Positions 1 to 38,746 of a stretch of DNA of 64,000 nucleotides are shown piece by piece. The position numbers were made by a program, and so were the translations under genes. The stretch comes from Nitrosopumilaceae archaeon (GTDB lineage Archaea; Thermoproteota; Nitrososphaeria; Nitrososphaerales; Nitrosopumilaceae). Positions within the stretch are counted from its first letter, which is position 1, and every line of letters starts with the position of its first letter. The notes under the pieces are model-generated. The model had not been told where the DNA came from, did not search any database, and worked only from the letters and a program-made list of their open reading frames with translations. The stretch lies in NCBI GenBank assembly GCA_965203465.1, contig CBDBCR010000001.1, forward strand, positions 640,001-704,000, written 5' to 3'.

Positions 1-2
1 GG

Positions 3-6311: not shown

Positions 6312-6643
6312 TGCGGGCGCCTGCCCGCATTCAACGTGCCCGACGAATGGCGTTTTCCGGAGCTGGAGATGCCGCGTGATCGTTCGGCGCCCCGATCTCG
6401 GGATCTGCGGCGCAGCCCGGCAGAGGCGGCGCAGCTGCGGGTTCCGGCGGCGCCCGCCTGGCCGCACCGGCCGGGCTACGGGCAGCCCGTTCGCCCCGTG
6501 TGTCGGACGGAGGCGAGCGGATTCCGGTCGTCTGCGCAGACCGCACGTTCGGGTTCCGTGGATGTCTCAAGGCCTCAAGACAGCCGCCTCCAGCGCACGC
6601 TGGCAAAATCGTGAGTGACTGACCAAGCGCGGCAGATCCGCGC

Positions 6644-26300: not shown

Positions 26301-29300
26301 TTTTCAGAACCGGTGCGGCTGGATCCGGCCGGCGCCCCGACCGGCTGGACCCTGTCGGGCGCCGACGCGGACAGCAGGCTCGTATCGACCATCGCGTTCG
26401 GCTCCCCGGCCAGCACCGCGACGCTGACCCTCGACGGCAACATCGTGGACAAGACCGACCCCTCGATCACCGTGGCGTACGCGGCCGGCGGCAACCTCGA
26501 GGATTCGGCGGGCAACTCGCTTGCGGCCTACTCGGCGGCGGCAGGCGACGGCATAGCGCCGGTCATACTCTCCGCCGAGTCGCGCGAGCTGGACAAGATA
26601 ACGGTGACGTTCAGCGAGGCCATGGACGCCACGCAGACCAACGCCGCGAACACCTGGACGCTGGGCGGCGCGGACAGGCCGGCGACGGTGGAGGTGAGCG
26701 GCAACCCGGCCATAACGACGGACACCACCACGCTGGAGCTGAGCGGCGACCTCGACGATCCGATCGGAACCGTCACGCTCCGCTACAACGCCGGCGCCGG
26801 CGACGCCGAGGACAAGTCGGACAACGCGCTGGCCTCGCAGACGGTCACGGTCACGCAGAACCTGGCGCCGCTCATAGCGTCGGCAGAGGCCACCTCGCTG
26901 GATTCCATCACTGTTACCTTCAGCGAGGCGGTCCGCGGAACCTCCACCAATCCGGACGGCACCTGGAAACTGGACGGGGCCGACGCGGGAACCATCACCG
27001 TGTCGCGGTACCCGGCCCCGTCCGGCACCTCCCTGGTGCTGGGCCTGTCCGGCGAGCTGCCCGACACCGACCCCGGCCTGAGCCTCCAGTACGTGCGGAA
27101 CCCGGGAGACGTTGAGGATCTGACCGGCACGCCGCTCGAATCCACGCAGTCGCCGCACGTGACAGTCTCGGACGGCATCGCGCCGGCCCTCTCGTCGGCG
27201 GCGCTAAACGAGGGCACCGGGGTATTGACGCTTACTTTCACAGAGACGGTAGACGTCTCGGAGATGAACGAGGCGGCTATATACGTGCGCGAGGCGGGCG
27301 CATCTTCGGGCGGCGTGGCCCTCTCGGCTTCGGCGCGCACCACCGCGGCGGATTCCGCGGCCGTCTCGTTCACGCTCTCCGAGCAGAACAGGCAGGCGGT
27401 CATCGCCATGGCCACCCCGCAGCTGGACATGGGCGCCGGGGCCGTGAGAGACCAGAGCTCCAACTCTTCGGCGGCCGCCTCCGACAGGCCGATAGCCGCC
27501 GAGCCGGACACCGTGCGTCCGCAGCTCCAGTCCGCTTCCCTTGACGAGGGCGCCGGCACCATCGTGCTCACGTTCGACGAAAAGATGGCGACGCCGACCG
27601 CGGCGCAGGCGGCCCGCGTCGAGATCGGGACTTCGGGCGCCAACATTGTATTCGCCGAGGCCGACATAGCCTCGGCCGTCCTGGACAGCGCGGGAACCAC
27701 GGTAACCATAACCGTGTCGGAGGCAAAGCGCCAGGAGATAATAGCGGCCGCGCCGTCCGACATAGACCTGCTGTCCGGCGGCCTGCGCGATGTGTCCAGC
27801 GCCGATGCCTCCTCTTCGGGGACCGCGTTGACGGCCACGCCCGACACGACAAGGCCCGCGCTCGCCTCGGCGGTATTGAACACCGACGACGGTGTGCTGG
27901 TGCTGAGTTTCAGCGAGACGATGGACGCCTCGTCGTTTGCGGGCGAGCTTGCCAAGGTCTCGGTGAACACGCCGGGCGACCCGGTGCGGCTTGCGGGGAC
28001 CGCGCGCGCCGACGGCACCAACGTCATAGTGACGCTCGACCCCGACGTGCTCCGGTCGCTGCTGGCCGTCATATCGGCCGCGCCCAACGCCGGCGCGCCC
28101 GGCCTGCTCTCGCTGGCGGTGCCGGGAGCCGCGCCGCAGTTCGCCGACACGTCGGGCAACGCCGTCACGGCCGTATCGGGCAATATTTTGATAGAGGACG
28201 GCCGGCCGCCATCGATGGTATCGGCTTCCGTGACAAGCTCGGACACCATCGTGGTGCGGTTCAGCGAAGACCTGGCCGACGGCACGGTGCAGACGTCGGA
28301 CTTTTCGGTTCCCGGGTACGACGTATCGTCGGTCTCCGAGCTGTCCGGGACCGTCACGATCACCATGGCCAACCCGGACACGTTCACCATGCGCGACGCG
28401 CCGGGCGTCAGGACGGCCGGGCCCGTCTCGGACCTGTTCGGCAATACGCTGGAGCCGGGCGCCCGGATACAGTCGGTCAACGCGATAATGCCCGTCATGA
28501 TATCGCAGTTTACCGTCTCGCACGACGGGCCGGCAAAGGCGGGCGACCGGATACAGATAACGTTCCGCGCCCAGGGCACGGTGGCCATGGACGCGGCGCT
28601 GCGCGTCAACGGCCAGGCGGTGGCGACTGTCTCGGCAGAGAACGGCTTCGACGCGACCTACACGGTTCCGGCCGGCGCCCCGCAGGGCCCGCTAAAACTG
28701 TACGTCGAGATAGTCTCGGGCACCGGCACGCCGACCGAATTCTCGGAAAGGGACCTTACGGGGCCCAACGCGGTCGTGGACACCGTGCCGCCCTCGGTCG
28801 TGTACGCGTCGATAGCCGGGATCGACTCGGTTACCGTCATTTACAGCGAGCCGGTGACCGCCTCTGCCTCCGACTATGCGGGCATCGAGGCCGACGGCGC
28901 CTCCCCCGTGCCCGCCTCGGGCGTGCTCGGCTCGGGGTCCAAGTCGATACTGGTCTCGTGGTCAGGGGGCGGCGCCACGCCGTCGTCCGTGAGGCTGACG
29001 GCCGGCGCGGTCACCGACGCTGCGGGCAACGCGGCGGCCCCCTCGCAGGTAACCGCCGCGGCGGCGCGAACCGAAGTCACGCTCGAAGAGCCGGGCATAC
29101 CGCTGGCCCGCGGCACCGTGGTCGGGACGGTCACGGCGCCCTCTGGGATAGAGCCGGTGGTCGACGTGTCCTCGTTCACGGGGACCGTGACGGATCCGGC
29201 CGTGATCGGCGCCGGCGGCGGCTCGGCCGTCTTCGATTCAGAGCTGCGCATCGTGACCCGCACGTTCGGGCTGCCGGACGCCACGTTCCCGGCCGGCACG

Positions 29301-30719
29301 CAGGCCGGCGGCCTCGGGCCCCTGGCGTCGGGCGGCGCGGCGTTCGGCGAGGCCATCGCCATATCTTCCAGCTCGTCGACGGCGCACCTGTCCGAAGACC
29401 AGCGCGAGGCCTACCCTCTGCTCTTCGACGGCATAACCACGACGGTCCAGGTGGGCCACCCCGGCCGCGACATTATATTCGACAGGCCGGTGCTCCTAGA
29501 GTTCGACATACCGCTGCGCGGCGCGCTGGTCTTTTCTGTCGGCACCCTCGGCGTGCCGCTGCCGATACCTGCCTGCGATCCGTCCTGGGACACCTCGGCG
29601 CTGCCCGTGGGCCAGTCGGTACCCGAGGGCTGGCCGCCGGGCACGTACGATACGAACGCGTGCGTCGACGAGGATTCCGATTCGGTCTGGACCGGGCATT
29701 TCAGCCTCTTCGGGGTATCGCAGCCGCCCCCGCGCGGCGGCTCGGAGTGCGACGACTGCACCCCGCCGACGCTCGGCTACGACCAGTACGGCGCAAAGCT
29801 GGTCGATGCGGGATTTGCGTACAACGGACTGGCCTCGGACGTGGAGTACTTTTTCACCCCGTACCCGCTCATAGAGTCCGAGGTGGGCGCGGAGAACGCC
29901 GTGGTGCTGAAAATATACGAAAACGAGGGCCCGCAGAACGTATCGCACGCCGCGCTGGCCTTCGGGCTGCGCTCCGGCGAGGTGATATCGGAGAGCAGGG
30001 CGGTCATAAACTACGACATTTCGTTCGACGGGGCCGGGACGGTCTCCGTGATAGATCCGGACGGGGCCATCGACCTGGACACTTTGGCAGCCGAGCACGA
30101 GACGGTCCAGTGCTCGCCCGGCTCGGAGCTGGAGTGCCTCCAGATAACGATAAAGCACGCGTTCCGCGCGCCGCTCGAGTTCGACATCGTGGGCACCGAC
30201 GTGTGGGATTCGCAGCGCAACTCGTGGCAAAACTACTACAACCACGGCATAAAAATATCGGGCGAGCCGCTCGACGGCCGGCCCGGAATCGAGGTCGACG
30301 GGATGGTGCTGCACCCCATATCGCCCGACTCTACGAACAGGGACGTGATGATGTCCCCCGACGGGCACCTGTTCAAGCTGTCCCCCGACGGCCGGTACGA
30401 GCCGCTCTCCAACCAGTCGCGGCTGTACCACGACATAGACGAGTCCATGTACCTGTACAGGGGCGTGCCCATGCAGGGCTACGACCGTTCCGATCCCGAG
30501 TTCCGCGACCGGCTCTACGAGCAGGTCGCAGAGGCGCAGAGGGTGCTCGACGCCATGATGCCGGCCCCCGAGGCCGAGGGCGAGGTGTCGGCGCCGGTAT
30601 CGCCGGACAGGCAGGCCGAAGAGGAGCGCCTGCGCGCGGCCATAGCCGCGGAGCAGGAGCGGGCCCGCCTGCTCTTCGATGTATTGTTCGGGTACTTGGA
30701 CATAAACGGGCAGAATTAG
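8400..30719 (+). CDS. Giant (7439 aa) secreted surface protein/adhesin: signal peptide, Ig-like domains, LVIVD-repeat beta-propellers, dozens of Ig-like (DGIAP) repeats, thaumarchaeal-type C-terminal domain
   Basis: Uninterrupted 22.3-kb ORF with an N-terminal hydrophobic signal. Repeated KTYAxV...GxQIIDxSxP blades (about 9650-12870). Tandem ITVTFSEPV...D..GN.L...DGIAP units of about 100-115 aa. C-terminal GHFSLFG...CDDCTPPTLG domain. Confidence 0.95.
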   Translation: MENLHRLAAAAAVFAAFVLAVPLAEATTPTITGAKAIALDKIEVTFSEPVTTAKNSETGWTATGGDLGTLRIIDGTSLSTPKNKVVFELSGKLPDTTPTGITLSYSTQSNCEPVWGGQLCRTIADIEDAAGDRLASRSNIPVSDGIAPTFTASATSTTGITVVFSETVTGTGTVSGTWTLSGDDAGTRTVTGSAPAGNSVSLTVSPALTDRSPDLRLTYNPSSGDLADSSGNEPSGIVKVSDRIKPLKPSITTQAVTVTSPSFDVAGTAEENSEVAVYVGARAESGAARAAGGSWTKTVTLEPGANSITAKATDRAGNESDASEAVSVTYNPTGTVITTVPSTFTSTTQTIEGRAPSGSSVSLYRAGLSAALATGAAGSAGLWSIQVELVAGDNVLTAVSTQGGVDVRSASVTFVLDTATHELAVVSSIRDEEGVFGTLAAPRDVEMFERNGKTYALVASAADSGLQLIDMSDPNEPDPVASVETSGLPFDVEIAEVGQKTFAIVAAHRNGAVDFVDITDLSAISKVRTVRHDSLDPAGGGFLRLEGGRSLDHFTVNSKHYIIVASDAGKTTLAPGGFLIMEFNENVNTDGTRTAPNFKHVYSNHQKQTDENGAEVVYSENRGGYGSAIFDPHARFDAGANAFVPVTNREGIRGYPGTFDVPRGGVAIYTWVLSVDKDSNWKSFPNRADNWNSLTDSQGRPRTVTAAGWPVPLTGNMDKVETAPSRVLVMNDNDTPADKSDDWLEASFGYGYSKGSIFRSPISERQVPNDGGSTLVAVDANGRPFEKRGLDAAGTLFPALEGAGSVDTFAVTKDGSTKTYAAIAAEELDAVQIIDISAPAAPLHVEAVFDGGRDEAGGQFLELDGAAGIEVVTINSKPYAVVASYRDDGFQIIDLSDPGSPLAASSGADRPGRAQGAYSTLDGPTSVHTFEHTVAGGQRTYALFTAGGYEDDGDGGGFQLVDITDPVRPYATGSGRDGERCSTAARYNYLGGANSAATAVIEGRLYSVIAGMDDDGIQTVRMDLSRRGSTLTVVNATADDTGGYSALGAPRSSEIAQINGRTYMFVSSFKEGDALDGARVVGNGGGLQIIDVTNPAAPQPAASLIDTDNTPFDILRGVGDIDVFEVGGRPYAIVTAQDEWAYSPDDGGPASRGGFLILDVSDPHNPRRASGVLAGQPYGGGDTGQSSFKMSGPIGVDTAKIGAKTYAVIASNYQLPAHNSGVSVVDISNPRLPKPVEWIAAGSSDDYGSPYSALGRTYDVEIFKTNSKTYAAVTSPNKNGVQFIDISAPGDPRAAGHRIHDAQLQKARTVSTITINNSHTGDEPRTYAVVVGGNDYTEELHYPLPWVPGRHTVPFGYMTVIDATDPASPSVARSVSKGGNGALGNFDLAGAWGVDAYHLGAKAYAAVACGSYVWGSHNECNGVTVVEITDPDQPRQRGRLVERPAAPSAENHLLDSRGIDTFISGAQAYSASGSFADQGIQILRLSTVRDTTAPAIEKAALNPDRGILEITFNELVRASSANFDLAGLSVNSVVGHSPDGRLSGAELLTAADDTLMRISLSDSDKTAFAALFASTPYPRLDVAAGAFDDQDGNDVEAIPDVTIEKLETSPVLRESSLDLGTGLVRLFFSEAVDATPPSRVDLAKFEMYKLTDVNAKISLSSSSLVTGSDDRTLEIQLDEPTRLSVVELDAVPVIDLGEGAVRGSEGEHLSDASSGNVFTRVYEDRTRPELVSAVRDGGALVLTFTEPVKVAAADFDLDQIMFYRHGDRPGATYLAVGLSSATVSTAEDSETVRITLTTAQTNAMGSHKDLVLEMVLDGGLSAVEDVTGYGIGQVTEPLRNPDGTGPVLDSSEAPAFGSTGRTLTVVFSEGLWTAETDPSKFHVRDGAGNANTAGQVTPTEAELEEGIDGSETVRFVLSEASAALIEAMSDPHLYLDSGAVRGSDSDPSAAAQAGRDVSEPAQARPAIRSATALDLSTISVQFTKQVTSAAGSADMAGAWRLGGPDSEPGGIPLTFSAATSLSSATDTLALTINGRLISPASDVYIGYDDSRGVSISDAGDSSLTLSSATTVIGGASTFEATATASNTITVIFSDPVSEAGTSGPGGWSVSGPDAGALEVSERTDISASSRTLVLTLDGHLTSTNPEITLDYDEAAGEVRNEHFEISGSVRVSDGLAPRISSAEAVSFETISVSFSEPMALSDTHAHGWSISGTDAAGLHVDLSTATSGSDAVVLTLDEELADGAPDGVYLRYETSGQDVGSDALSGAGEISDLAGNALVAVSSITVSDGIAPQFSARITGDTQVTVDFTEPVSSADNSYLHWEFSHADGSAPHTAPLSAASLSSLTSSMALQLNRALPLPTADLSIEYLGVGTVSDGAGNELAAASAEVSEDRRPFIESARATAADTVVVTFTKPVSSAAAPADLAGAWSVSGGDADAPAQLGVQSASSLQNPTRALTLTLSGSLPDTKPDGVSVAYDSTPDSGTAVAVSDAGGAALLDASVSVSDGIAPTFAASSPAPDKVRVVFSEPVSYTSTPAAATWILGGADLPPGVAVSANPAVSGARTALLTLSGSLNDPVGDVTLRYDDGPGNARDASGNDLESATAPVARDPAPTITSAKATKINEITVTFSKAVLTSDTEGRGWSVSGTDAIALHVEASSDVSAGSTTVVLTLDGNLADSAPDGVLLRYETDGRDISGDLGSGSGGIRDSAFNPLAARSSITVSDGIPPTISARTVPAQSVIYEFSESVNRGSQPFTVIGYTGGNCGTTQTTNSGNGFRYNVLNAQCPFSPSERGHFFLTLNDITDNGGNRLGTGRLALPIDDGIAPTITRSEATSLDTIRVTFNESVTTTDTTGKGWSISGTDAGSRTVDSSTALDGNSVILTLSDPLPDTRPALKLKYDTSGTDAAGDPGSGSGDITDQPYTSFVVNGVTIQRSDVAQYLTFPESTGNPLADVAEDFVFDGIAPTASFEVTGDRTITVTFSETVQGSDNDKSHWSISGSDAAGIQISSVSSLASFTDTMTITLDKDLPARLTDLKLAYDAGGNINDLSLRLAAFAATAVPDERGPSIMSAVATGPDTILVTFSRAVSSSDADSDLLSAWSLSGTDATAGATPLTVSAATSLSLSTSTLGLTLSGNLPDTRPDLVLTYDSTPSQSTTVSITDAGSEALPDSSVDVGDGLAPSVSSAQYTGRGTVLVEFGEPVKLESGNAQSGWTVSGTDIGAATSASPPAGLATSSATSVSLTLDGQLADKTLLDFTLSYQSGNLVDESGNALEAYSEKPDDGLAPRVLSAEIFTGNQARITYSEPVTATLLDYQVSVGGQARNVPIIFGTGTDTHRVQFTGTAGTGATGFLTIDSRSVLDGSGNALGDSAALRQNLADGQSPTVASATVADRRTIQVAFSESVRLSGAGTAPFGWAISGADANSAEVDSISDISESVSGTSATLTLDRDIADTTSPSVAVAYSGGNIEDTAGNALAAYAATAATDGIAPSVSSAEYVSRDTVLLTFSEPVRLSSAGAPTGWTVSGADRGSATGAGAGQGDIAPLTDQVSASSATLTLNGNLADKTILDFTLAYSGGNIEDAAGNALGQYSERPSDGIRPEIESAVAGTLNSVTVVFSEPVLATSTAPSETWTLGGSGRPASVAVNDNPPIPTAATRTTLGLSGSLNDPLGTVTLAYDAGTGDVRDESGNGLASYTASVVLDMPPSVSSARVTGPDSVVIQYSEPVEAVQSDYRSLAVGGQARAVSGLLGGTTATHTITFRGEDPFGTDATGSVSINAPNITDATGNALGAGVIQQPLSDGQSPTVSAEYTARNSVALTFSEPVRLSSGSVPAGWTVSGTDKGAATAASSVSVITTSVTSTSATLTLNGQLADKTLLDFTLSYSGGNIEDDDGNALAAYSATPDDGIAPTVSSAKYTSRNMVDLEFSEPVRLSSGGAPTDWTVSGTDKGAATAASSVSVITTSVTSTSTTLTLDGNLADKTVLDFTLAYAATGNIEDQGGNALAAYSATPDDGIAPKITSAKVTGPNQITVAFSEHVFTQGSHYSSIVVDGAGRGISGSQTGRTVAAVISFDGAAAGTGAAGDLTINAGQVVDDANNALGTQAALPVTLTDGQAPTFTAEATGLDEITVTFSESLSISDETARGWSVSGADATGRTVDSSTPVSNGDTVVLTLSSDLEDTRPDGVLLRYEVSGTDVSGDPGSGSGTIADSASNALAAISSVTVSDGIAPEVSSAKYTARNSVELSFSEPVRLSSAGAPTGWSASGADVVSSPTAGSAISVLTASATATSATLTLDSNLADKTSLDFTLSYDEAAGNIEDESDNALARYSEKPDDGLAPRITSAKATGLDQITVTFSENMNISDTTAQGWSVSGTDAAGRTVDSSTAVSNGDTVVLTLGSDMEDTKPDGVLLQYKTSSGDVGSDPGSGSGAIADPSSNALAARQSIPVSDGIAPTATAEATALDRITVTFSEPVSVPANAQGWSISGTDAAGLDVTASTSTSSGLSTVLTLSGNLADTNPDNAVLRYKTSAGNVGSDADSGSGAIGDPDSNALAARQSMPVSDGLAPTASFALTDDRAITVSFSEPVSSPDNDASHWSISGADASGLAVSSVSSLTSATGSMTVALDGDVPVPSADLKLAYSAGGTISDGASLVLAAVPAAAVQDDRRPSIMSAKAVNPAATGPSTIVVVFTREVSSSNNPSDIPSAWSVSGTDATVNGSALAVSGASSLSVSTKTLTLTLDGRLPDTRPDLDLAYDSTPASGTAVSIADANSRAMADASVAVADGIAPAVEKAEITGPTTITITYGEAVTAGAAAYSPPTVDNYFRSAPTVSGSGTAVHTLTFTTPSGTPAVGTGAAGSVTIAEAEITDESGNAMMRTTGARMQPLADGQAPTFTAKATELDKITVTFSEPLTVLGTNAQGWSVSGGDAADRTVDSSTSVTSGTTMVLTLSSDMDDTKPDGVLLQYKISSGDVGSDANSGSGAIADPSSNALAARANITVLDGIAPAVVSSKITGPNTITVTYGEAVTATTAHYAPTVGTARAVSALAGSGTAVHTLTFGGDAAGTGDTGTVSIDAAQVKDTSDNALGTSAISRNLDDGQSPEVSSATVTDRRTVSVTFSEDVKLSGTAAAPYGWTLSGADANSRQVSSVSGIDTNTAAGTATLTLDGDIADKTDPAVTVAYSGASIVDSEGNPLAAYAATAADDGIAPTLTARATSLTTIEVTFSEPVDAPATNAQGWSISGTDAPSLQVISSTATSSGLSTVLTLSGSLADTNPDNAVLRYKTSAGDVPGDAASGSGAIEDLASNALAARQNVPVSDGIAPAIELAESREADKITVVFSESVSGTATGAGTWALSGSGAGGRTIGYAAFSGTSVVLSVSSAFPEPIGEVTLSYSSSAGDIKDGADIDLASVATTVTQNLAPTIASAEATAPGEITVTFSETVSGTATDAGGTWKLSGTDAGSIAVTQYPGVSSNAVILGISPALTTTSPSLQLQYIRGPGDIQDSTNKPLASTTSPHVTVSDGIAPAVKSAKATSLREITVEFSEDLSVSGTNAQGWSVSGGDAAGRTVDSSTAVSSGDTVVLTLSSDMDDTKPDGVVLQYKTSSGDVGSDANSGSGAIADPSSNALAARANIPVSDGIAPAVVSSKITGPNTITVTYGEAVTATASNYTPTVGTARAVSALAGSGTAVHTMTFGGAVAGTGDTGTVSIDAAQVNDGSDNALGTSAISRNLDDGQSPAVASVTVTDRRTLSVAFSEAVQLSGAGTKPFGWTLSGADAGSVQVDSVGGITQSASATTATLALDGDIADKTDPAITVAYSGGNIADTAGNALADYAAATATDGIAPAVTSVTVTSRNTIDVEFSEPVRLDPAGAPTGWTLSGADADSRTVSTIGFGSSARTATLTLNGNIADKTNPAVTVAYADSGNLEDLAGNALAAYAAATATDGIAPAVTSATVDSRNTISVAFSEPVRLDPAGAPTGWTLSGADADSRLVSTIAFGSPASTATLTLDGNIVDKTDPSITVAYAAGGNLEDSAGNSLAAYSAAAGDGIAPVILSAESRELDKITVTFSEAMDATQTNAANTWTLGGADRPATVEVSGNPAITTDTTTLELSGDLDDPIGTVTLRYNAGAGDAEDKSDNALASQTVTVTQNLAPLIASAEATSLDSITVTFSEAVRGTSTNPDGTWKLDGADAGTITVSRYPAPSGTSLVLGLSGELPDTDPGLSLQYVRNPGDVEDLTGTPLESTQSPHVTVSDGIAPALSSAALNEGTGVLTLTFTETVDVSEMNEAAIYVREAGASSGGVALSASARTTAADSAAVSFTLSEQNRQAVIAMATPQLDMGAGAVRDQSSNSSAAASDRPIAAEPDTVRPQLQSASLDEGAGTIVLTFDEKMATPTAAQAARVEIGTSGANIVFAEADIASAVLDSAGTTVTITVSEAKRQEIIAAAPSDIDLLSGGLRDVSSADASSSGTALTATPDTTRPALASAVLNTDDGVLVLSFSETMDASSFAGELAKVSVNTPGDPVRLAGTARADGTNVIVTLDPDVLRSLLAVISAAPNAGAPGLLSLAVPGAAPQFADTSGNAVTAVSGNILIEDGRPPSMVSASVTSSDTIVVRFSEDLADGTVQTSDFSVPGYDVSSVSELSGTVTITMANPDTFTMRDAPGVRTAGPVSDLFGNTLEPGARIQSVNAIMPVMISQFTVSHDGPAKAGDRIQITFRAQGTVAMDAALRVNGQAVATVSAENGFDATYTVPAGAPQGPLKLYVEIVSGTGTPTEFSERDLTGPNAVVDTVPPSVVYASIAGIDSVTVIYSEPVTASASDYAGIEADGASPVPASGVLGSGSKSILVSWSGGGATPSSVRLTAGAVTDAAGNAAAPSQVTAAAARTEVTLEEPGIPLARGTVVGTVTAPSGIEPVVDVSSFTGTVTDPAVIGAGGGSAVFDSELRIVTRTFGLPDATFPAGTQAGGLGPLASGGAAFGEAIAISSSSSTAHLSEDQREAYPLLFDGITTTVQVGHPGRDIIFDRPVLLEFDIPLRGALVFSVGTLGVPLPIPACDPSWDTSALPVGQSVPEGWPPGTYDTNACVDEDSDSVWTGHFSLFGVSQPPPRGGSECDDCTPPTLGYDQYGAKLVDAGFAYNGLASDVEYFFTPYPLIESEVGAENAVVLKIYENEGPQNVSHAALAFGLRSGEVISESRAVINYDISFDGAGTVSVIDPDGAIDLDTLAAEHETVQCSPGSELECLQITIKHAFRAPLEFDIVGTDVWDSQRNSWQNYYNHGIKISGEPLDGRPGIEVDGMVLHPISPDSTNRDVMMSPDGHLFKLSPDGRYEPLSNQSRLYHDIDESMYLYRGVPMQGYDRSDPEFRDRLYEQVAEAQRVLDAMMPAPEAEGEVSAPVSPDRQAEEERLRAAIAAEQERARLLFDVLFGYLDINGQN

Positions 30720-30729
30720 CCCGGCTTTA

Positions 30730-32028
30730 GTGCCTTATCAGGAACGGAAACCGTGCGGAGCCGTGGAGATAGATCTTTCTTCCATGGAGGGGACGGCCTA
30801 CTCGGACATGATGGAGTCGGTGGGCAGCGACGTGACAAAGTACGTGTACAAGAACAGCCTGGCAGCGTTCATGGCGGCGGTGCCCGACGGCGTCTTTGAA
30901 AAATACGCCGGGATCCGGCCAAAGTCGCGCGGCATCGAGGACATGTGCGAGGCGTTCGTGGGGCTGGCCAGGTCGAACCCGGACGCGGCCAAGGCGGCCG
31001 TGCGCAGCTACGTAAAGGGCCTCAAGGAGCTGGTCGGAAAGGGCAGGCTGAGCCCCAACACCGTCCCCAACAAGATAAAGCCGGTAAAGGCGCTGCTGGC
31101 AGCGGCCGAGATAGACCTGTCCTGGAGGGCGATCAACAAGATGATGCCGCCGCCGGTCAAGAGCCGCGACCGCGCGTACACGCGCGACGAGCTGCGGGCC
31201 ATGCTGGCCGGCTCGCCGAGCCTGACCGACAAGTTCATAGTGCTTTTCTTCTCGTCGGGCGGCTTCCGGGTGGGGGCGTGGGACTATTTTTGCTGGGAGG
31301 ACCTGGTGCCGGTCGGCGACCCGCCGGAGGGCGCCGCGCTGCGGGTGTACCGCGGGTACCCCGAAGAGTACTGGACGTTCGTGACGCCCGAGGCGTACGC
31401 GGTCGCGCAGCTGTACAGCAAAGAGTGGGAGCACAGGTTCGGGCGGGCGCCGCGCGGCTCCGATCCGCTGCTCGCCTCGGTGAGGTACGACACGCCGGTC
31501 CGGCTCGGCGTCAACAGCGTCAAGAGCAGGGTGGCCAAGATAGTCTCGCGCGCCGGCCTCCGCCCGCCCGGAAAGGGGCGCAGGATGCACGCGGTCAAAC
31601 TAGACCACGGGTTCCGCAAGTACTTCAACACCATGATGAGGCGGGCCAAGGTGGACTACCTGGACAAGGAGGACATGATGGGCCACAAGGTGGGCCTCGA
31701 ATCCCACTACGAGCGGTACAACGAGGAGGATTTCGAGCGGTTCCCAGAGTACAGAAAGGCCATACCGTTCTTGACCGTCTCGGACGAAGAGCGGCTCAGG
31801 GTCGAGGCGAGGGCCAAGCAGGCCAAGATAGACGAGCTGACCGCCCTGCGGAGGAGGGAGGAGGCGGGCAGGAAGCGGATAAAGTCGCTCAAAAAGGAGG
31901 CGGCCGGCGAGCGCGAGCTGCGCGACCGGGTGTTCGAGATGGTCGAAGAGATCGTGGGCCGGCTGGGCGACGGGCCGTGCGCGAGCTGCGGCGGGGAGCA
32001 CGGGGGCCGGTGCCCCGGCCGGGGCTGA
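30730..32028 (+). CDS. Tyrosine recombinase/integrase (archaeal type)
   Basis: SSGGFRVG (catalytic R), HGFRKYF (HxxR), MMGH...ESHY (H, Y), and a C-terminal coiled coil. Confidence 0.92.
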   Translation: MPYQERKPCGAVEIDLSSMEGTAYSDMMESVGSDVTKYVYKNSLAAFMAAVPDGVFEKYAGIRPKSRGIEDMCEAFVGLARSNPDAAKAAVRSYVKGLKELVGKGRLSPNTVPNKIKPVKALLAAAEIDLSWRAINKMMPPPVKSRDRAYTRDELRAMLAGSPSLTDKFIVLFFSSGGFRVGAWDYFCWEDLVPVGDPPEGAALRVYRGYPEEYWTFVTPEAYAVAQLYSKEWEHRFGRAPRGSDPLLASVRYDTPVRLGVNSVKSRVAKIVSRAGLRPPGKGRRMHAVKLDHGFRKYFNTMMRRAKVDYLDKEDMMGHKVGLESHYERYNEEDFERFPEYRKAIPFLTVSDEERLRVEARAKQAKIDELTALRRREEAGRKRIKSLKKEAAGERELRDRVFEMVEEIVGRLGDGPCASCGGEHGGRCPGRG

Positions 32029-32235
32029 TCCGCGCCCGGCAGCGGCCTTTTATGCGGGCCGCCGCACCGGCCGCATGAAAGACTGCCCCTCCTGCTCGGA
32101 GCCGTTCGCCGACCATTCGAACAAGCGGCTCGTCGCGTGCGCGCGGCGCCTCCTGAGGTCTGCCCCCGCCGGCCCGCGGCGCGGCGGCCCGGACTAGGCC
32201 CCCCGCCTTTTTTCCCGCCCGGCCCTGCCTTCCGG

Positions 32236-32607
32236 GATGTGCCGCTTAACGGGGCGCAAAGGGGCCCCGTTCAGGGTCACATCGCGCGCTAAACCTGACC
32301 ATTTTTTTCGCCCGGCAGACCTTGCCGGCCGCGCGCGGCCGTCCCTGGCAGCGGCCGGGCTGTAGGAGGCCATATACCCTTGAGCCGGGACGCTGGCGTC
32401 CCGAGTAAAGGGCACATCGCCCCAGTCGCGGGCGCCTAGTGCGCCCGGCAGACCTCCCCGCCGCGCGCGATCTTTTTCGGGCGGCCGCCGGGCTGTAGTA
32501 GGGCCCATACCCTTCATGGCGGCAGCTAGGCTGTAGGGGAGCATATACCCTTGAGCCGGGACGCTGGCGTCCCGAGTAAAGGGCACATCGCGGGAGAAAC
32601 CTGACCC
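32236..32607. repeat. Repeated hairpin elements upstream of the actin-like gene: identical 50-bp copies at 32371-32420 and 32542-32591, plus a related hairpin at 32236-32285
   Basis: catatacccttgagccgggacgctggcgtcccgagtaaagggcacatcgc occurs twice, with inner stem cgggacgc/gcgtcccg. Also gcccggcagacct twice, ggctgtag three times and aaacctgacc twice. Confidence 0.85.
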
Positions 32608-32636
32608 CCCTTTTATGCTCCCGGCCCACCGCGCGC

Positions 32637-33467
32637 ATGCTCAAGATGGGCCTGGATCTGGGCACCGGCTTCGTAAAGTGCGTCTCGGACCGCGGCTCGG
32701 TCCGGTTCCCGTCCGTGTGCGTAAAACGCGTGCACGGGGCGTGGTCCGAAAGGGACGCCGAGGCCGTGGGTACGGGCGCGGCCGAGATGGCCGGCGCCTC
32801 GGGCTCTTCTGTCGTGCGGCCCATATCGAGGGGCAGGCCCGAGCCGCGGTACGCAAAGCAGGCCGAGGCCCTGGTGCGCGAGGCGGTGAGGCTGTCGTGC
32901 GCCGGGGGCGCCAAAAGCCGGGAGCCGGAAAAGATCAGCATGGTGGTGGGCCTGCCCTACCACGCCTTTGCCGACCGCGAGGCGCTCGTGCGGCTGGTCA
33001 AGCGCACGGCCGACGTCGAAAAGTGCCGGGTGGTGGCCCAGGCGTGCGGCACGCTGGTCTGCCTCGGAAAGCCGAGCGGGATATCGGTCTCGGTGGGGCA
33101 GGGCACCACCGAGATAGTTGTAGTCGAAGAGTACGAGGTCATAGACGGGGACAGTTCCAGGTGGGCATCGGACTTTGTGACCCGCAAGATAGGCAAGCTG
33201 GCCCACCTGGATTTGGGGTTGCTGGAGCGCAACAGGGAACTTTGCAAAAAGTACTCCAAGATACTGGCCGAGAACCTGGAATCGGAGGTGCTCGACATGG
33301 CCGACGGGTGCGGCAAAAAGCACGACATCGCGCTCTCGGGCGGCGGGCTGCTGCTGCCCGGCATGCTCGACGACCTGTCCGGCCGCCTCAAAAAGAGGTT
33401 CGGCGTTCTGGTCCCCGACGACCCCGTGATGAGCAACGCCCAGGGGCTGTACAGGCTGGCGCGATAG
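32637..33467 (+). CDS. Actin-fold ATPase (ParM/StbA/MreB-like)
   Basis: Phosphate-1 GLDLGTGFVK, phosphate-2-like VGQGTTE, adenosine motif LSGGG, connect-2 DDPVMSNAQG. TTTTATG box about 22 nt upstream. Confidence 0.88.
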   Translation: MLKMGLDLGTGFVKCVSDRGSVRFPSVCVKRVHGAWSERDAEAVGTGAAEMAGASGSSVVRPISRGRPEPRYAKQAEALVREAVRLSCAGGAKSREPEKISMVVGLPYHAFADREALVRLVKRTADVEKCRVVAQACGTLVCLGKPSGISVSVGQGTTEIVVVEEYEVIDGDSSRWASDFVTRKIGKLAHLDLGLLERNRELCKKYSKILAENLESEVLDMADGCGKKHDIALSGGGLLLPGMLDDLSGRLKKRFGVLVPDDPVMSNAQGLYRLAR

Positions 33468-33468
33468 C

Positions 33469-36400
33469 ATGGGCTCCAAGCGCTGGCAGCTGTCCAACAG
33501 GAAGAAACCTGCGGGGCAGCTCGGCTCCGCCGACCGGTTCCTGCCCCCCGCCGGGGAGCTTGCCGCCTGCTCGGTCTCGGTCCCCATACGGATGGACGCA
33601 AAGGCGGCCGTGATGGCCGCCGGCGGACTGGCCAGCCAGAGCGCGCGCAGCTTTGAGATCTGGTGGGACGGGGGCGAAAAGCGCCTGGACATAGTGCTGG
33701 CCGCCGAAAAGCGCGACCTGCCCGCCTACCGGCAGGCGTTCCTCAACATGTACCCCAACGCGGCCTTTTCGGACATGGCCGCCACCGTCCCGTCCTGGTT
33801 CCCGCCGGGCCCCGAGTGCCGGTTCTTCGACGTCGGCACCTACCACGGCCACTACGCCTCGGTGCTCGACAAGGGCAGGGCCCACCAGCTGATGTCGCAG
33901 GTGGCCGCCACCGTCCAGCTCTCCGGCAGGGCTTGGATCCAGTTCGTCTTCAAGCTACACCCGTTCAACGGGTTTCTGAGGAGGCACGTGACGCGCCTCA
34001 ACGCCAAGAACCGCGAGATATCGCGCGGCAAGTACCTGTCCAACACGGAAATACTGATGCACCCCGACAAAAAGCCGCACGACCACCCGGAGCTGGGCTA
34101 CGACTATACGAACAACTACCCGGGCCTCCAAAAGCACGCCACGCTCAAGATGCAGGGGGCCCACGTGCTCATGTCCGCGCGCGGCGCCGTCTGCGGCGGC
34201 GACGACCTGGATCTCCACTTTGACGAGATCGAGGCCATGCCCGTCGAAAACATACACTCGGGCCACGAGCACCTGACCAAGTTCGGGTACAAGTACCAGG
34301 ACTTTGCCGACGAGAAAAAGGCGCGCGTGAAGATAGGCAGGGAAAAGGGGACGCGGATGGGCCTGTTCCCGGGCAGGCTGCTACCCGATCCGGCCAGGTT
34401 CACGGACAAGGCTACGGGCAAGTACTTCGACAAGGGGATATTCGGGTACGGCGAACGCAGGCCCCTGCCGTTCCTGCTGCTCAACTTGTCAGAGATCCCG
34501 CTGCTGGTCCACCTGCCGGCGCCGGCCACCCCCAACATCGAGACGACCCGCGGCGTCTCGATACCCTCAAAGCCGTCCGAAAAAGAGGGCGCCAACGTCG
34601 GCTTTTTCAGGCAGCCCTCGCCTTCCGGCTTCGACTGGTCCGGGGCGTGGGGGGTGTCGGCCAGGTCCAAGGACGCGGGCGCGGCCGTCGTCTCGGAGGC
34701 CGACTTTGCCACCCACCTGTACGCCGTGGGCGCGTCGGGCTCGGGCAAGACTTCCTTGATACGGCTGCTGGCCAAGCATTTGGAGGCGTGGAACGGTTCG
34801 GGCTTCCCCAACGCCTTCGTGTACGTGGACCCCAAGGGGGACGACTCCCACAAGTTCGTAAAGCAGTGCTCGCCCGAGGCGCTGGCCTCGGGCAGGGTCC
34901 ACTTTCTGGATCCGCAATCGACCAGGTTCTCGATAAACCCGCTCGAGCTGCCCGCCTACGCGCCCGAAGAGAGGGAGGAGACCGTATCGCGGTACGTCGG
35001 GTACTTCATGAAGACCATCGAAGAGTGGTACCAGCAGTCGGCCAGCTACGTGCAGATGGAGAGGATCTTCAGGGCCCTGCTGTTCTACCTGTACATGAGG
35101 CACGACGCCCCGACATTCCTGGACATACACGACACGATACTAAAGCTCCAGGACCGCAAGGGCGACGCTTTGCCGGAGATAATAGAGACGTTCGGCGAGC
35201 CGGACCCCGAGATGGAGCGGGCCCTCGAGAGCATAGCCACGCTAAAGGGCGAGGCGTTCACCCCTCTCCTGAACCGGGTGGAGCAGTTTGCCACCGACCC
35301 CGTGTTGAAGAGGATGTTCTCGGTCAGGCGCGGGACCGTCGATTTTGCAGATCTGATAAAGCCCGGCTCGTACACGGTGGTCAGGATATCGCCTTTGAAC
35401 ATGCCCCAGCACGTCCAGCCGCTGGCCATGCAGGCGTTCATACTAAAGCTGTGGTTCACCATACAGGAGAGGGCCAACCGGGTGCCCGACGAAAAAGACC
35501 GCACGCAGGTGGTCCTTGCTTTGGACGAGTTCCAGATAGTAAAGGACCTGCAGGTGCTCCAGCTGATGCTCGAGCAGGCCCGCTCGCTGGGCCTCGGGCT
35601 GGTGTTGTCCCACCAGACCACCGAGCAGATAAGCGACAAGCAGCTGGGCATCATTTCGGGCAACGCGGGCACCCAGCTGGTCGGCAAGGTCAACGGCAAG
35701 GACGCCTCGCGCATAGCCCAGATCTGGGATCCACAGTTCCAGACCGAACTCCAGCAGCAGCTGGCAAGCCAGGAATACTTTCACTGGACCGTGCGCGAAA
35801 AGGCCCCGCCCGGAAAGGAGCAGCCGCCCCCCATACAGTTCTGGCTGGGCGCCCCGCCCGAGCAGCTGGTGGGCGGGCAGGCGTACCAAGAGTTCGTCTC
35901 CGGCCAGCTGGAAAGGTACGGGCGCGGCGTGGTAGGCAGCGCAGAGTCGGCCGCCCGCGAGGCCAAGACTAGGTGGATGGAGCAGGTTACGGTAAAGCTG
36001 CCCTCCGCGCTGGAATGGAGGATAATGCTGGCCCTCAGGCAGGGGCAGAGCCTCCAGCAGGCGCAGATAGTCGATATTTTGCGCGTGGCCAACCGCACCG
36101 AGGTGATGCCCGTCCTAAAGGATATGGTCGGGCGCGGCCTGCTGGAGCGGCCCGGCGGGGGCCGGACCGCCCCGTACAGGCTCACGGACAAGGCCAAGGG
36201 CACCTACTTCGATCTGGACTTTGCCGGGGTCGGCACGGCCGGCGACGTCGAGTCTTTGTGCCGCAAGGCCGCCGAATCGTACATGGCCTGGGACATGTTC
36301 GTGGCCGTGGCCAGCCAGAGGATATCCAAGGGCAGGGACAGGACCGACCTGGTGGCCTACAACTACGAGACGGGCGTGCCGGTCAGCGTGGAGATAGAGT

Positions 36401-36570
36401 CGGCCAGCGAGGTGTCCAGCCACCGCGAGCACGTCCGGTACAACATGGTAAAGTGGAGGAAGATGGGCTTCGGCGCCTGCCACGTGTGGTCCACCAGCCC
36501 CAAGGTGCGCGAGATCTACGACACTTTGGACGAGCGCGACAAGAAGGTCGTAGAGCTCGTGGTCACCTGA
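33469..36570 (+). CDS. VirD4/TraD-HerA/FtsK-superfamily ATPase (coupling-protein-like) with C-terminal wHTH and PD-(D/E)xK-like domain
   Basis: Walker A GASGSGKT, VDPKGD, SINPLE, Walker B LALDEFQ, ARSLGLGLVLSHQ (Arg finger plus Gln). Tail RTDLVAY...VSVEIES. Starts 1 nt after the actin gene. Confidence 0.88.
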   Translation: MGSKRWQLSNRKKPAGQLGSADRFLPPAGELAACSVSVPIRMDAKAAVMAAGGLASQSARSFEIWWDGGEKRLDIVLAAEKRDLPAYRQAFLNMYPNAAFSDMAATVPSWFPPGPECRFFDVGTYHGHYASVLDKGRAHQLMSQVAATVQLSGRAWIQFVFKLHPFNGFLRRHVTRLNAKNREISRGKYLSNTEILMHPDKKPHDHPELGYDYTNNYPGLQKHATLKMQGAHVLMSARGAVCGGDDLDLHFDEIEAMPVENIHSGHEHLTKFGYKYQDFADEKKARVKIGREKGTRMGLFPGRLLPDPARFTDKATGKYFDKGIFGYGERRPLPFLLLNLSEIPLLVHLPAPATPNIETTRGVSIPSKPSEKEGANVGFFRQPSPSGFDWSGAWGVSARSKDAGAAVVSEADFATHLYAVGASGSGKTSLIRLLAKHLEAWNGSGFPNAFVYVDPKGDDSHKFVKQCSPEALASGRVHFLDPQSTRFSINPLELPAYAPEEREETVSRYVGYFMKTIEEWYQQSASYVQMERIFRALLFYLYMRHDAPTFLDIHDTILKLQDRKGDALPEIIETFGEPDPEMERALESIATLKGEAFTPLLNRVEQFATDPVLKRMFSVRRGTVDFADLIKPGSYTVVRISPLNMPQHVQPLAMQAFILKLWFTIQERANRVPDEKDRTQVVLALDEFQIVKDLQVLQLMLEQARSLGLGLVLSHQTTEQISDKQLGIISGNAGTQLVGKVNGKDASRIAQIWDPQFQTELQQQLASQEYFHWTVREKAPPGKEQPPPIQFWLGAPPEQLVGGQAYQEFVSGQLERYGRGVVGSAESAAREAKTRWMEQVTVKLPSALEWRIMLALRQGQSLQQAQIVDILRVANRTEVMPVLKDMVGRGLLERPGGGRTAPYRLTDKAKGTYFDLDFAGVGTAGDVESLCRKAAESYMAWDMFVAVASQRISKGRDRTDLVAYNYETGVPVSVEIESASEVSSHREHVRYNMVKWRKMGFGACHVWSTSPKVREIYDTLDERDKKVVELVVT

Positions 36571-36624
36571 TCACGCCCGAGAGCACGGCGGCCAGACCAC
36601 GCCCCGGGGGCTTTCGGAACGAGG

Positions 36625-36933
36625 TCACTTGATCTCCAGCCTGTCCAGCGGGTCAAAGTCGAGCTTGTCGACGGGCTCTGTCCTGCGCTCTTCGGCCGCG
36701 CCCTTCATGGTCTTTTCGATGGCCTTGCGCGCCTGGGAGACGTAGTCCTCGACGGCCTTGGCGTCCTTTTTGCCCAGGACGTCCTGCCGCTTGGCCACCA
36801 GCATTCCGGCCACCGTGTCCATGGATATTTCGTCGCCGGCCTCCCACCCCAGGTCCCTGACCAGGTGGGTGGGCACGCTCACCATGTACGCCCTGTCCTT
36901 TTTGCGCAGCGTCCGGCGCCACCTCTTGTCCAC
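36625..36933 (-). CDS. AbrB/MazE/SpoVT-fold DNA-binding protein
   Basis: YMVSVPTHLVRDLGWEAGDEISM matches the AbrB pattern VxIP..lr..LG...GD. GTG start about 22 nt below a CTTAAAT box. Confidence 0.8.
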   Translation of the reverse strand: MDKRWRRTLRKKDRAYMVSVPTHLVRDLGWEAGDEISMDTVAGMLVAKRQDVLGKKDAKAVEDYVSQARKAIEKTMKGAAEERRTEPVDKLDFDPLDRLEIK

Positions 36934-36960
36934 GACGCCAACGGGCGGGCCCGATTTAAG

Positions 36961-37140
36961 GCAGAAAAGCGCCTCCAGGCGCCTTTTGCTGTACCTCCAG
37001 GCGCTTTTGCTACGACCTGCTGTGCTTGAAGGCGCCTTTTTGCTGTGCTTTGAGGCGCCTTTTCGAATTCCTGCTGTACCTCTAGGCGCTTTTCTGCTGT
37101 GCTTGAAGGCGCCTTTTTGCTGTACCTGAAGGCGCCTTTG
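36961..37140. repeat. Array of 7 direct repeats AGGCGC(C)TTTT..GCTGTRC plus one inverted copy (iteron/centromere/operator-like)
   Basis: Copies start at 36977, 36999, 37030, 37053, 37084, 37107 and 37130. The inverted copy at 36961-36974 abuts the TATA-like box of the AbrB-like gene. Confidence 0.85.
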
Positions 37141-37921
37141 GGCACGGCCGCGCCGCCCTCGCATTCACCCACGAAAACGAAAACAAAACGGGAGGAGCAC
37201 GGCTCCCCCGAATCCTCCCGACCTAAGCGGGCCGCCCGTCGGCGGCCCACGTCCCGGACCGTCTCGGCCGGCTGGACACCGGCCGGACCCAGGGATCGCG
37301 GCCATGGCCGGCCCCGCCCCCGGACGATCTTGGACGCACGCCCAGACCGGTTCGGCCCCGGCAGAGCCTAACCGGCTGGCAGGATCGGGCCTTCGGCGGT
37401 TCTTTCCAGATCCGGTTCTTTGCCCTACCGGGTTCGGCACCCCTCCGGAGGCCGGTTCTCCACATACGCGCAGTCGGACGAGCCGCCCCGTCCGGTACTT
37501 GTCTCCGGCCACCATGAGACTGTCGGTTGAACCGCGTCGGCCGGTACTCCGGCCAAGTCTTGCCCGTCTGAACGTCCGGCCTGACCGGCCGCCTTGTCTG
37601 TCCGTCCAACCTCGTTCTTTCGACACCGTTTAGATTCCGTACACAACCAGCAGTCAAAAACAGGTTCGCCACGGTTGGCAGCTGTCAGCTTCGTATGTCC
37701 GACGTGGTTCCTCCCGGACTTCAGGGCGCCTTTCTCCGCCGCCCGGACACCGGCCACAGGCGTGTGGGCGGGTTTGTCCTCTGGTCAGATCCGGCCAAGA
37801 TCGCCTCCAGATTGTATTAGCGTACGGCACGACGGCACGGCACGACGGCAGAAAATCCAAGTACGCGGCACTCGGCTTGTCTGCCCGATCTGGCACCTGT
37901 TCTGGCTTCGGATTTGCTCAC

Positions 37922-38417
37922 GCCCGTGGCTCCATGGCCCGTGGCTCCATGGCCCGTGGCTCCATGGCCCGTGGCTCCATGGCCCGTGGCTCCATGGCCC
38001 GTGGCTCCATGGCCCGTGGCTCCATGGCCCGTGGCTCCATGGCCCGTGGCTCCATGGCCCGTGGCTCCATGGCCCGTGGCTCCATGGCCCGTGGCTCCAT
38101 GGCCCGTGGCTCCATGGCCCGTGGCTCCATGGCCCGTGGCTCCATGGCCCGTGGCTCCATGGCCCGTGGCTCCATGGCCCGTGGCTCCATGGCCCGTGGC
38201 TCCATGGCCCGTGGCTCCATGGCCCGTGGCTCCATGGCCCGTGGCTCCATGGCCCGTGGCTCCATGGCCCGTGGCTCCATGGCCCGTGGCTCCATGGCCC
38301 GTGGCTCCATGGCCCGTGGCTCCATGGCCCGTGGCTCCATGGCCCGTGGCTCCATGGCCCGTGGCTCCATGGCCCGTGGCTCCATGGCCCGTGGCTCCAT
38401 GGCCCGTGGCTCCATGG
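37922..38417. repeat. Perfect tandem repeat, 15-bp unit GCCCGTGGCTCCATG, about 33 copies
   Basis: Read directly, with no variant units seen. The ORF track shows MEPRA x33. All six frames are open across it. Confidence 0.97.
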
Positions 38418-38746
38418 CACAAATGAATCCGAATTGCCAGGAGGCACACGCTTCTTTGAACCCAGTCTTGTTGGTTCGTTAGATCATATTGTCCACTTGG
38501 GAGCACGAGATCGGCATCCCTTGGGGAGACCGAACAGGAACGGCGGATCCGGCCGTACTTTGCTAAGATGTTTTTCACATGAGCGGCAGATTCCCAGCCC
38601 GTCTTTGCAGTCGATCCAAAAGACGGGCGCACTCCCGTTCTGCACGCGGACAGAGCGGCGGCGTCCGTACCGCCGCCCGGATCCGGCTTGGGCTCGGCCC
38701 GAATTGCCGCAACGCACGCCGTACCCGTCTGTCGCCTTGCCTGTGA

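Follow-up and report, generated by a model that had tools for sequence, protein, structure and literature searches.

What is the role of a locus that joins a tyrosine integrase, an actin-fold ATPase, a second, much larger ATPase, an AbrB-fold protein, and arrays of short repeats in a Nitrosopumilaceae archaeon? The locus lies in a stretch of 64,000 nucleotides (nt), hereafter the 64-kb window, whose positions serve as coordinates throughout. An earlier note on this DNA had proposed an integrative element in which an actin-based partition system is linked to a DNA pump. All the parts that it listed are found where it placed them, and the integrase, actin, ATPase, AbrB protein, and repeats are confirmed. 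According to tblastn and blastn, the whole stretch ~30718-38560 is repeated elsewhere in the host genome (2.26 Mb in four contigs, 96.9% complete). The copy of the element in the window is called W, and the others B, C, D, and E. The main features of copy W are as follows.

~30718-38560, conserved core of the element: integrase, repeat spacer, actin, ATPase, AbrB, iterons, and 15-bp array
30730-32028, + strand, predicted tyrosine integrase, 432 aa, GTG start, weak Pfam and PHROG integrase matches
32029-32636, non-coding spacer of ~0.6 kb between the integrase and actin genes
32637-33467, + strand, actin-fold ATPase, 276 aa, Pfam matches to MreB_Mbl and ALP_N
33469-36570, + strand, multidomain ATPase, 1033 aa, beginning one base past the end of the actin open reading frame (ORF)
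36625-36933, - strand, AbrB/MazE-fold DNA-binding protein, 102 aa, GTG start, convergent with the ATPase
36954-36959, - strand, TATA-like box TTAAAT, 21-26 nt upstream of the AbrB GTG, with the iterons directly beyond
36965-37139, + strand, iteron array, 8x AGGCGCYTTT within ~23-nt units CTGCTGTRCYTNNAGGCGCCTTT
37140-37921, non-coding spacer of ~0.8 kb, shared piecewise with other copies
37922-38418, + strand, perfect tandem array of the 15-bp unit GCCCGTGGCTCCATG, 33.1 units at 100% identity
38419-38560, last stretch common to other copies and thus the end of the core; similarity to copy B stops at 38537 and to copy D at 38561

What stays constant at the centre of the element family is the AbrB gene and its iterons, accompanied by at least one of two nucleoside triphosphatases (NTPases), the actin and the ATPase. 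The order of actin, ATPase, convergent AbrB, iterons, and perfect array recurs in other genomes. With moderate confidence, we read the core as the backbone of a family of integrative, plasmid-like elements of Nitrosopumilales, in which the actin and the ATPase would both be served by a centromere-like hub, the AbrB-iteron complex.

The distribution of the two NTPases was determined in a class sample of 401 genomes, with genomes G132 and G326 included in the counts. ATPase relatives occur in 59 genomes (42 of the 223 in the host's family, the rest in five further families), and the actin occurs in 43, all in the host's family. Among 5.8 billion proteins, the actin family forms 87 clusters at 90% identity, with lengths of 159-422 aa (mostly ~275 aa) and with named members from Nitrosopumilus, Nitrosotenuis, or Thaumarchaeota. 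When one genome per species was scanned (77 actin loci), all lineage-naming titles referred to Nitrosopumilales/Thaumarchaeota or uncultured Nitrososphaerota; the actin-bearing lineages are Nitrosopumilus, Cenarchaeum, Nitrosotenuis, Nitrosotalea, and other Nitrosopumilaceae/Thaumarchaeota. The named homologues are all from Nitrosopumilales/Thaumarchaeota, in agreement with the proposed host group, Nitrososphaeria.

The gene neighbourhoods take three layouts: ATPase-AbrB, which is the widest; actin-ATPase-AbrB, in the host's clade; and actin-AbrB, in a soil clade. Among the 47 actin loci with at least 4.5 kb of downstream sequence, the order actin-ATPase-AbrB is found at 12, AbrB converges directly on the actin gene with no ATPase at 10 more (mainly from Nitrosotalea and soil genomes), and actin and ATPase stand together without AbrB at two. 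The co-occurrence of the three proteins predicted by the earlier note is thus borne out. In other genomes, a convergent match to an AbrB hidden Markov model (HMM) lies at the 3' end of the ATPase gene at 20 of 23 loci; 10 of the 23 contributed to the HMM, and among the other 13 the adjacent match is found in 10. Across genomes, AbrB is the constant partner.

The arrays accompany AbrB as well. The eight repeats described at its promoter are present, and iteron arrays lie upstream of AbrB in 15/15 close relatives, with element-specific sequences, periods of 22-55 bp, and up to 12 units. A second perfect short-period array follows the iterons in eight of these 15, and at six of seven distant ATPase loci that lack the actin, an array with a period of 9 or 18 bp is found immediately upstream of AbrB. 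In the window, AGGCGCYTTT occurs nine times against an expectation of 0.31, a number reached in none of 100 shuffles, and eight of the nine copies fall within 36965-37139. Seven of the eight iterons are direct and one is inverted. Their start-to-start spacing (22/31/23/31/23/23) alternates between 23 and 31 bp, so that the pattern has a double period of 54 bp. The iteron array is 89% identical in copy B and is kept in copies D and E.

The AbrB gene ends 54 nt from the ATPase stop codon (stop to stop). Its start is set at the GTG at 36933, because the resulting 102 aa match the length of database relatives. Given the position of the TATA-like box, its transcript would be leaderless. The match of the protein to Pfam MazE_antitoxin (E 6.4e-4, 20.1 bits) is below the cut-off of 24.7; the family profile finds MazE/PemI chains at 7e-4 and also AbrB-family chains, and these profile matches carry the swapped-hairpin N-domain signature of AbrB/MazE/SpoVT. 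Two actin-paired AbrB proteins match MazE_antitoxin with E values of 3.7e-5 and 4.6e-3, and soil-clade members reach up to 24.0 bits. After the N-domain come an acidic linker and, at the C-terminus, the conserved tail DFDPLDRLEIK. Across relatives the tail reads PLDRLEIK, RLEKLRMK, or NPLKDLDL, and in the actin-only clade SLADLQY.

The element is integrative and multi-copy, residing at tRNA genes and look-alike sites next to exchangeable tyrosine integrases, as the proposal of an integrative element implied. It has five genomic copies, two of which adjoin tRNA genes. Copy B, on contig 3, is 92% identical to W over the actin-to-iteron segment and 85% over the integrase segment; C, D, and E make up a diverged subgroup, with 59% identity in the actin and 67-69% in the ATPase. 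The integrases of B, D, and E are 82-83% identical to that of W, and copy C carries one from another lineage (31% identity). Remnants of the integrase (N-terminal fragments 1-161, 1-124, and 1-35) lie at three more genomic sites. In other genomes, the same cassette is accompanied by other integrases: our own integrase HMM finds one within 6 kb upstream at 21 of 52 actin loci, and at 13 of these 21 the integrase has a neighbouring tRNA gene. All three of the ORFs tested upstream of actin match Pfam Phage_integrase over the cut-off, and two of them lie beside tRNA-Asp. In W, the integrase matches Phage_integrase with E 0.013 (15.7 bits, below the cut-off of 27.1) and the PHROG integrase family phrog_1 with E 7.4e-6. 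Its catalytic motifs, GGFRVGA (Arg), HGFRKYF (HxxR), and HYERY (Tyr), were assigned by eye in the translation rather than from a reference alignment. The location of copies at tRNA 3' ends favours a role as a tyrosine recombinase.

In our preferred reading, the integrase would excise and re-insert the element. AbrB dimers would bind the phased iterons that abut their own TATA box, and this binding would both autoregulate abrB and assemble a nucleoprotein complex resembling a centromere. Through its conserved C-terminal tail, AbrB may give the actin and ATPase motors a handle. The excised copy would be positioned or segregated by polymerisation of the actin. The soluble ATPase, with its winged helix-turn-helix (wHTH) and nuclease-like domains, would load at the repeat arrays and move or process element DNA, in resolution, replication-coupled handling, or export.

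Several observations weigh against this reading. The functional steps, namely binding, polymerisation, excision, and transfer, are all ones that we infer from sequence. At 23 of the 47 actin loci, neither the ATPase nor AbrB stands beside the actin; at most of the distant-clade actin loci examined, the gene after the actin is a small ORF on the same strand that belongs to no known family. Three of the five genomic copies are decayed and two intact: D and E retain only frameshifted remnants of the AbrB gene, and the ATPase gene of C is cut. No replication gene is recognised in the core. No flanking direct repeat longer than 11 nt surrounds any copy, and the left junction has no long repeat. The right end and attachment (att) site of W are putative, the core end at ~38560 being set by similarity to other copies. 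Read contigs over 27500-37900, all short and fragmented, contain no circular junction or empty site; contig joints with sides of 21-22 nt were judged untrustworthy. In the alignment of the actin family, the phosphate-2 Asp of actins is replaced by Ser (S-I-G-Q-G-T-T-E). The actin model appears nearer to MreB/MamK than to plasmid ParM, and no ParM entry is among the 50 Foldseek matches listed for it. The ATPase matches mad8 in PADLOC (E 6.4e-15), and its core resembles the HerA partners of defence systems as well as it does any other group.

The alternatives turn mainly on the ATPase, which is predicted to be translationally coupled to the actin. Its AlphaFold2 model (mean predicted local distance difference test, pLDDT, 92.3) divides into four parts.

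residues 1-~395, N-terminal alpha/beta domain
residues ~400-840, FtsK/HerA-superfamily P-loop core with Walker A GASGSGKT and Walker B LALDEFQ
residues ~846-904, MarR-like wHTH
last ~130 residues, C-terminal domain of alpha-beta-beta-beta-alpha-beta order with conserved D960, E974-x-E976, and H985

The family conserves Walker A (GxxGSGKT), Walker B (DEFQ), and, further on, an R and an HQ motif. Of the Pfam families, TrwB_AAD_bind is over its cut-off (24.8 against 20.5 bits), and TraG-D_C, T4SS-DNA_transf, and DUF87 are below theirs (DUF87, 13.6 against 23.2 bits). With the family profile, the P-loop finds FtsK/EssC, TrwB, HerA, and DotL, and the wHTH region finds MarR regulators; the match to the FtsK core covers short stretches and is weak (E 4e-4 to 5e-9). 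Foldseek places the core about as close to TrwK/VirB4 as to HerA, the DndH C-domain, TrwB, and the HerA partners of defence systems, with E values of 3e-12 to 1e-8 and target-normalised template modelling (TM) scores of 0.4-0.6 for single-domain entries. The terminal domains have no Pfam, NCBIfam, or PDB sequence match. The N-domain is a separate protein in many homologues, and Atlas gives it a lead to DUF8128 (0.91), to be taken as a lead only. The predicted C-terminal domain has a restriction-endonuclease-like pattern and may be nuclease-like. For the wHTH and C-terminal part together, Atlas leads point to Replic_Relax, CoiA, and AHJR-like nucleases (0.79-0.93, again leads only), the Replic_Relax lead resting on 12-20% of members. 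No nuclease family, Replic_Relax included, matches the C-terminal domain in Pfam even at E values up to 5.

Such an architecture could serve DNA transfer by a single motor, as in the TraB-clt system. The ATPase would export double-stranded or nicked DNA, its wHTH would read the arrays, and its C-terminal domain would cut as a restriction-fold relaxase; AbrB would be accessory at the transfer origin, and the actin would only deliver the DNA. An FtsK/TrwB/DotL-type P-loop and a wHTH do occur in one chain, two repeat arrays adjoin the ATPase gene, and the element pairs an integrase with a single large ATPase at tRNA genes. The Atlas leads to Replic_Relax, CoiA, and AHJR-like proteins and the weak prepilin-peptidase-like genes near relatives also favour transfer. 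An N-terminal membrane anchor is typical of VirD4, FtsK, and TraB. The ATPase has no hydrophobic anchor (no 19-residue window with a Kyte-Doolittle mean of at least 1.6), and therefore it is not a standard coupling protein. The VirD4/TraG/TrwB coupling proteins share the P-loop with Walker A and B motifs, but they are encoded with VirB4 and channel genes, none of which turned up in the element or in the neighbouring ORFs scanned. In accordance with the expectation that this is not a standard conjugation locus, no VirB4, VirB6, or relaxase family of Pfam matches any of the 16 ORFs scanned, a subset of those in the window. Since the ATPase is soluble and channel genes are absent, the label 'coupling-type' given to it in the earlier note is not established; since it matches VirB4, HerA, DndH, and TrwB about equally, a DNA pump of the coupling type is one of several possible readings. 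In addition, pore and pilus genes are absent from the element, viral contigs contain no relative of the actin, and comparisons of genomes and viral contigs give no sign of spread between distant hosts. The Atlas scores give no more than leads, and no nuclease family matches in Pfam. On balance, we regard transfer by a single motor as unlikely.

In the reports on actinomycete integrative and conjugative elements (ICEs; PMC4447253, PMC3429521), a small tRNA-targeting element carries a single FtsK-superfamily ATPase with a DNA-recognition domain and short repeats nearby, as here. The ATPase of our element differs in its lack of a hydrophobic segment, its extra N-domain, its nuclease-like end, and its AbrB partner; TraB is membrane-anchored. 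The winged helix of FtsK and TraB reads short repeats, and the MarR-like wHTH with adjacent arrays is a possible counterpart, but the FtsK core match is weak.

Alternatively, the pair could be defence or addiction cargo, with a HerA-like ATPase-nuclease effector that is restrained by a MazE/AbrB-type autoregulator on operator repeats and that stabilises the element or protects the host; the actin would be unrelated cargo. This is suggested by the Foldseek matches to SIR2-HerA, DUF4297-HerA, and the DndH C-domain, by the mad8 match, by the MazE build of AbrB (DNA-binding N-domain, acidic linker, short conserved tail), and by a neighbourhood with SIR2, GmrSD, PRTase, Dsr1-like, and PD-Lambda-4-like genes. 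The P-loop core fold is indeed shared with HerA-NurA, DUF4297-HerA, SIR2-HerA, and VirB4/TrwB; however, in HerA systems the nuclease is a separate protein and there is no wHTH or AbrB partner, whereas the nuclease-like domain of the element is fused to its ATPase, and membrane machinery is absent. The ATPase and AbrB genes are convergent rather than in an operon, they make up the backbone of elements that occur in several copies and are not variable cargo, and AbrB pairs directly with the actin where the ATPase is missing. The iteron arrays, with as many as 12 units, are long, and a second array comes after them. As for a MazEF-like toxin-antitoxin pair, no toxin family matches any of the element's proteins, and the genes are convergent, whereas the antitoxin and toxin of such a pair are co-transcribed. 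We consider this explanation improbable too.

The third alternative, classical type II partition as the earlier note had it, turns on the actin. Here the actin would be ParM, AbrB a ParR-like adaptor, and the iterons the centromere, with the ATPase a separate, linked pump. The protein matches Pfam MreB_Mbl (35.6 bits) and ALP_N (33.3 bits), each over its cut-off, and a PHROG 'partition protein' family (E 7e-12). It carries the motifs DLGTGFVK, VVAQAxGT, SIGQGTTE, and SGGG, of which DxGTGFVK, QAxGT, and SGGG are retained in the family alignment. The AlphaFold2 model (pLDDT 91.9) is closest to MreB/Mbl/MamK (query-normalised TM score, TMq, 0.68-0.76), followed by eukaryotic actins, and the best match in a sequence search of the PDB is MreB (E 0.009). 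The model does not support the description of the actin as ParM-like.

The resemblance to ParMRC of plasmid R1 lies in the combination of an actin-fold NTPase, a small tailed DNA binder, and repeats at the promoter of the binder; the eight putative iterons at the TATA-like box of AbrB fit the ParMRC centromere. In contrast to ParMRC, the DNA binder has an AbrB/MazE fold rather than a ribbon-helix-helix and is encoded convergently rather than in the same operon, a 1033-aa ATPase lies between the genes, and the actin is nearer to MreB/MamK. The 10 convergent actin-AbrB pairs without ATPase, found in tRNA/integrase elements, strengthen the partition idea, as do, for the classical form, the ALP_N and PHROG matches and the iterons at the AbrB promoter. 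However, AbrB follows the ATPase without an actin (20 of 23 loci), so that it is not simply a substitute for ParR serving the actin. The ATPase-AbrB pairs and the MreB-like fold together weaken a simple ParMRC analogy. In the host's clade, moreover, the ATPase gene stands between those of actin and AbrB and appears translationally coupled to the former, and the 23 actin loci without an adjacent AbrB also count against the classical scheme, which we judge quite unlikely.

That the element is a virus remnant, with the ATPase as an FtsK-HerA-superfamily genome-packaging enzyme, is very improbable: the ATPase matches PHROG families 7035 and 5156, and its best whole-chain viral structure matches are 800-900-aa large Bacillus phage proteins (E down to 2e-28), but those have an unknown role and are not known packaging ATPases, capsid or other virion genes are absent from all five copies, and no relatives of the actin occur in viral contigs.

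We thus return to the AbrB-iteron complex as a hub for both motors. A further-reaching version of this reading, which we put forward only tentatively and which is more doubtful, is that the module represents a new class of segregation or DNA-handling system. AbrB on phased iterons would act as the centromere adaptor, its tail would engage the actin, the soluble motor, or both, and the ATPase-AbrB pair would be ancestral, with the actin a later addition in Nitrosopumilaceae. Targeted literature searches found no published description of an actin-ATPase-AbrB module. Integrating elements with their own actin-like protein are known from bacteria, namely srpMRC of the SXT/R391 ICEs (PMC4489591) and AlpAC of prophage CGP3 (PMC4446434). 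In the available text of these reports, and unlike here, the actins are of the ParM/Alp type, the adaptors are different, and there is no ATPase-wHTH-nuclease-like protein. The cryptic thaumarchaeal elements described by Krupovic et al. 2019 (PMC6563490) resemble ours in being small and tRNA-associated, with tyrosine integrases and very short att sites, and they are said there to have no signature genes. The terms actin, ParM, MreB, AbrB, and SpoVT are absent from the main text of that paper, whose supplements might list such genes.

If our preferred reading is true, the element would place an actin on mobile DNA in ammonia-oxidising archaea, for which the literature searches found no paper, and an AbrB fold, rather than a ribbon-helix-helix, would recognise its centromere-like site. 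Also of interest for archaeal cell biology would be a soluble motor of the FtsK/HerA class that has DNA-recognition and nuclease-like domains in the same chain, and the three natural layouts offer a comparative experiment on the role of each partner. Ammonia-oxidising archaea carry out a large share of global nitrification. No genetic system is known for them, and few of their mobile elements have been described. An element that is compact and multi-copy and brings its own integrase and a self-contained maintenance module would be a natural starting point for a vector in these organisms.

The boundaries of the element are defined best on the left, where it meets a giant gene.

8400-30719, gene for a 7439-aa repetitive secreted-type protein, ending 10 nt before the integrase
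30717-30729, + strand, left junction: TAG stop of the 7439-aa gene, then CCCGGCTTTA

Similarity extends to copy B from 30718 and to copies D and E from 30726, and in all copies the left end is sharp, 4-12 nt ahead of the integrase GTG. The att-like core TAG[A]CCCG[C/G]C is common to the left ends of W, B, D, and E. The left end of copy D is the 3' end of tRNA-Lys(CTT), the element beginning 6 nt past the tRNA; copy C adjoins tRNA-Ala(GGC). Given the shared short core, the stop region of the giant gene resembles a tRNA end. The C-terminal 900 aa of the giant protein have ~24 tblastn matches on all four contigs (30-97% identity), and two of the three integrase-fragment sites lie directly 3' of giant-gene paralogues. 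The 3' end of the giant gene may be a preferred insertion site, or it may have been duplicated along with an element remnant. Thaumarchaeal att sites down to 8 bp have been reported (PMC6563490).

On the right, a candidate 11-nt att match for W at 47891 was rejected because it lies within the conserved transposase coding sequence of an insertion sequence (IS) element. For copy D, the 11-nt TAGACCCGCCC at C3:972418, 15.8 kb rightward in AT-rich intergenic DNA, matches the tRNA-Lys 3' end at the left junction. If this candidate is attR, the cargo of copy D would be ~6 kb and include a 1010-aa helicase-like ORF. The window DNA is high-GC; the core has 65.6% GC, compared with 65.0% for the genome, and GC drops to 59.5-60.5% to the right of the core, where the following gene is found.

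38747-41386, - strand, 879-aa membrane protein with a weak DUF2254 match, directly beyond the core and single-copy in the genome

Because this gene is absent from the other element copies, it is either cargo or host DNA.

The non-coding repeats of the element are all restricted, within the genome, to the element copies, and Rfam has no real family match in 30000-39500. The spacer between the integrase and actin genes contains three features.

~32046-32082, hairpin after the integrase stop codon
32339-32420 and 32510-32591, 82-nt direct repeat, 88% identical, with a 7-9-bp palindromic stem
~20 nt ahead of the actin ATG, TATA-like TTTTAT

The 82-nt unit is confined to the five copies and stands four times in tandem in copy C. 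The hairpins claimed for this spacer are only partly borne out: the palindromic repeat is present, but the folding energies are not better than those of shuffles (z-scores -0.9 to -1.9). In the spacer beyond the iterons, ~470 bp (37320-37790) are missing in copy B, and contigs of public runs X3 and X4, from other studies, join across the gap. The 15-mer array has ~20 units in copy B, is shorter or degenerate in D and E, and is otherwise absent from the genome. Among relatives, second arrays with 93-100% matches and units of 13, 19, 39, or 41 bp are present at loci L074, L076 (Cenarchaeum sp.), L077, L079, L081, and L088-L090. The 19-mer of relatives and the 15-mer of the window both start with GCCCGT.

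The element is placed within a defence-rich region (1-8000 and 41769-64000). On one side, positions 1-8000 encode two SIR2_2 proteins. On the other, 41769-64000 encodes ParB_N + PRTase-CE (PRTase_III-A in PADLOC), an N6_N4 methylase, a DDE transposase, a Dsr1-like and a PD-Lambda-4_A-like large protein, DUF4238, and GmrSD.

Other genes recur near relatives of the element. An ORF of ~300 aa with the motif RQLYYQLV and no Pfam family lies between the integrase and actin at L028:6247-7137, L026:12252-13223, and L049; we take the motif to recall Spo11/TopoVI-A-like proteins of mobile elements. A ~220-aa membrane protein beside the actin or ATPase is weakly prepilin-peptidase-like (Peptidase_A24, E 0.0025, under the cut-off). 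Together with a protein bearing an LYPDK motif, it recurs at L053-L055, L031-L034, L037, L038, and L040, and genomes G082 and G162 each have two such loci. In the host genome, similar sequence of ~0.85 kb flanks copy E on both sides and also occurs rightward of copy D; ORFs bearing a CxC...CxH motif are nearby.

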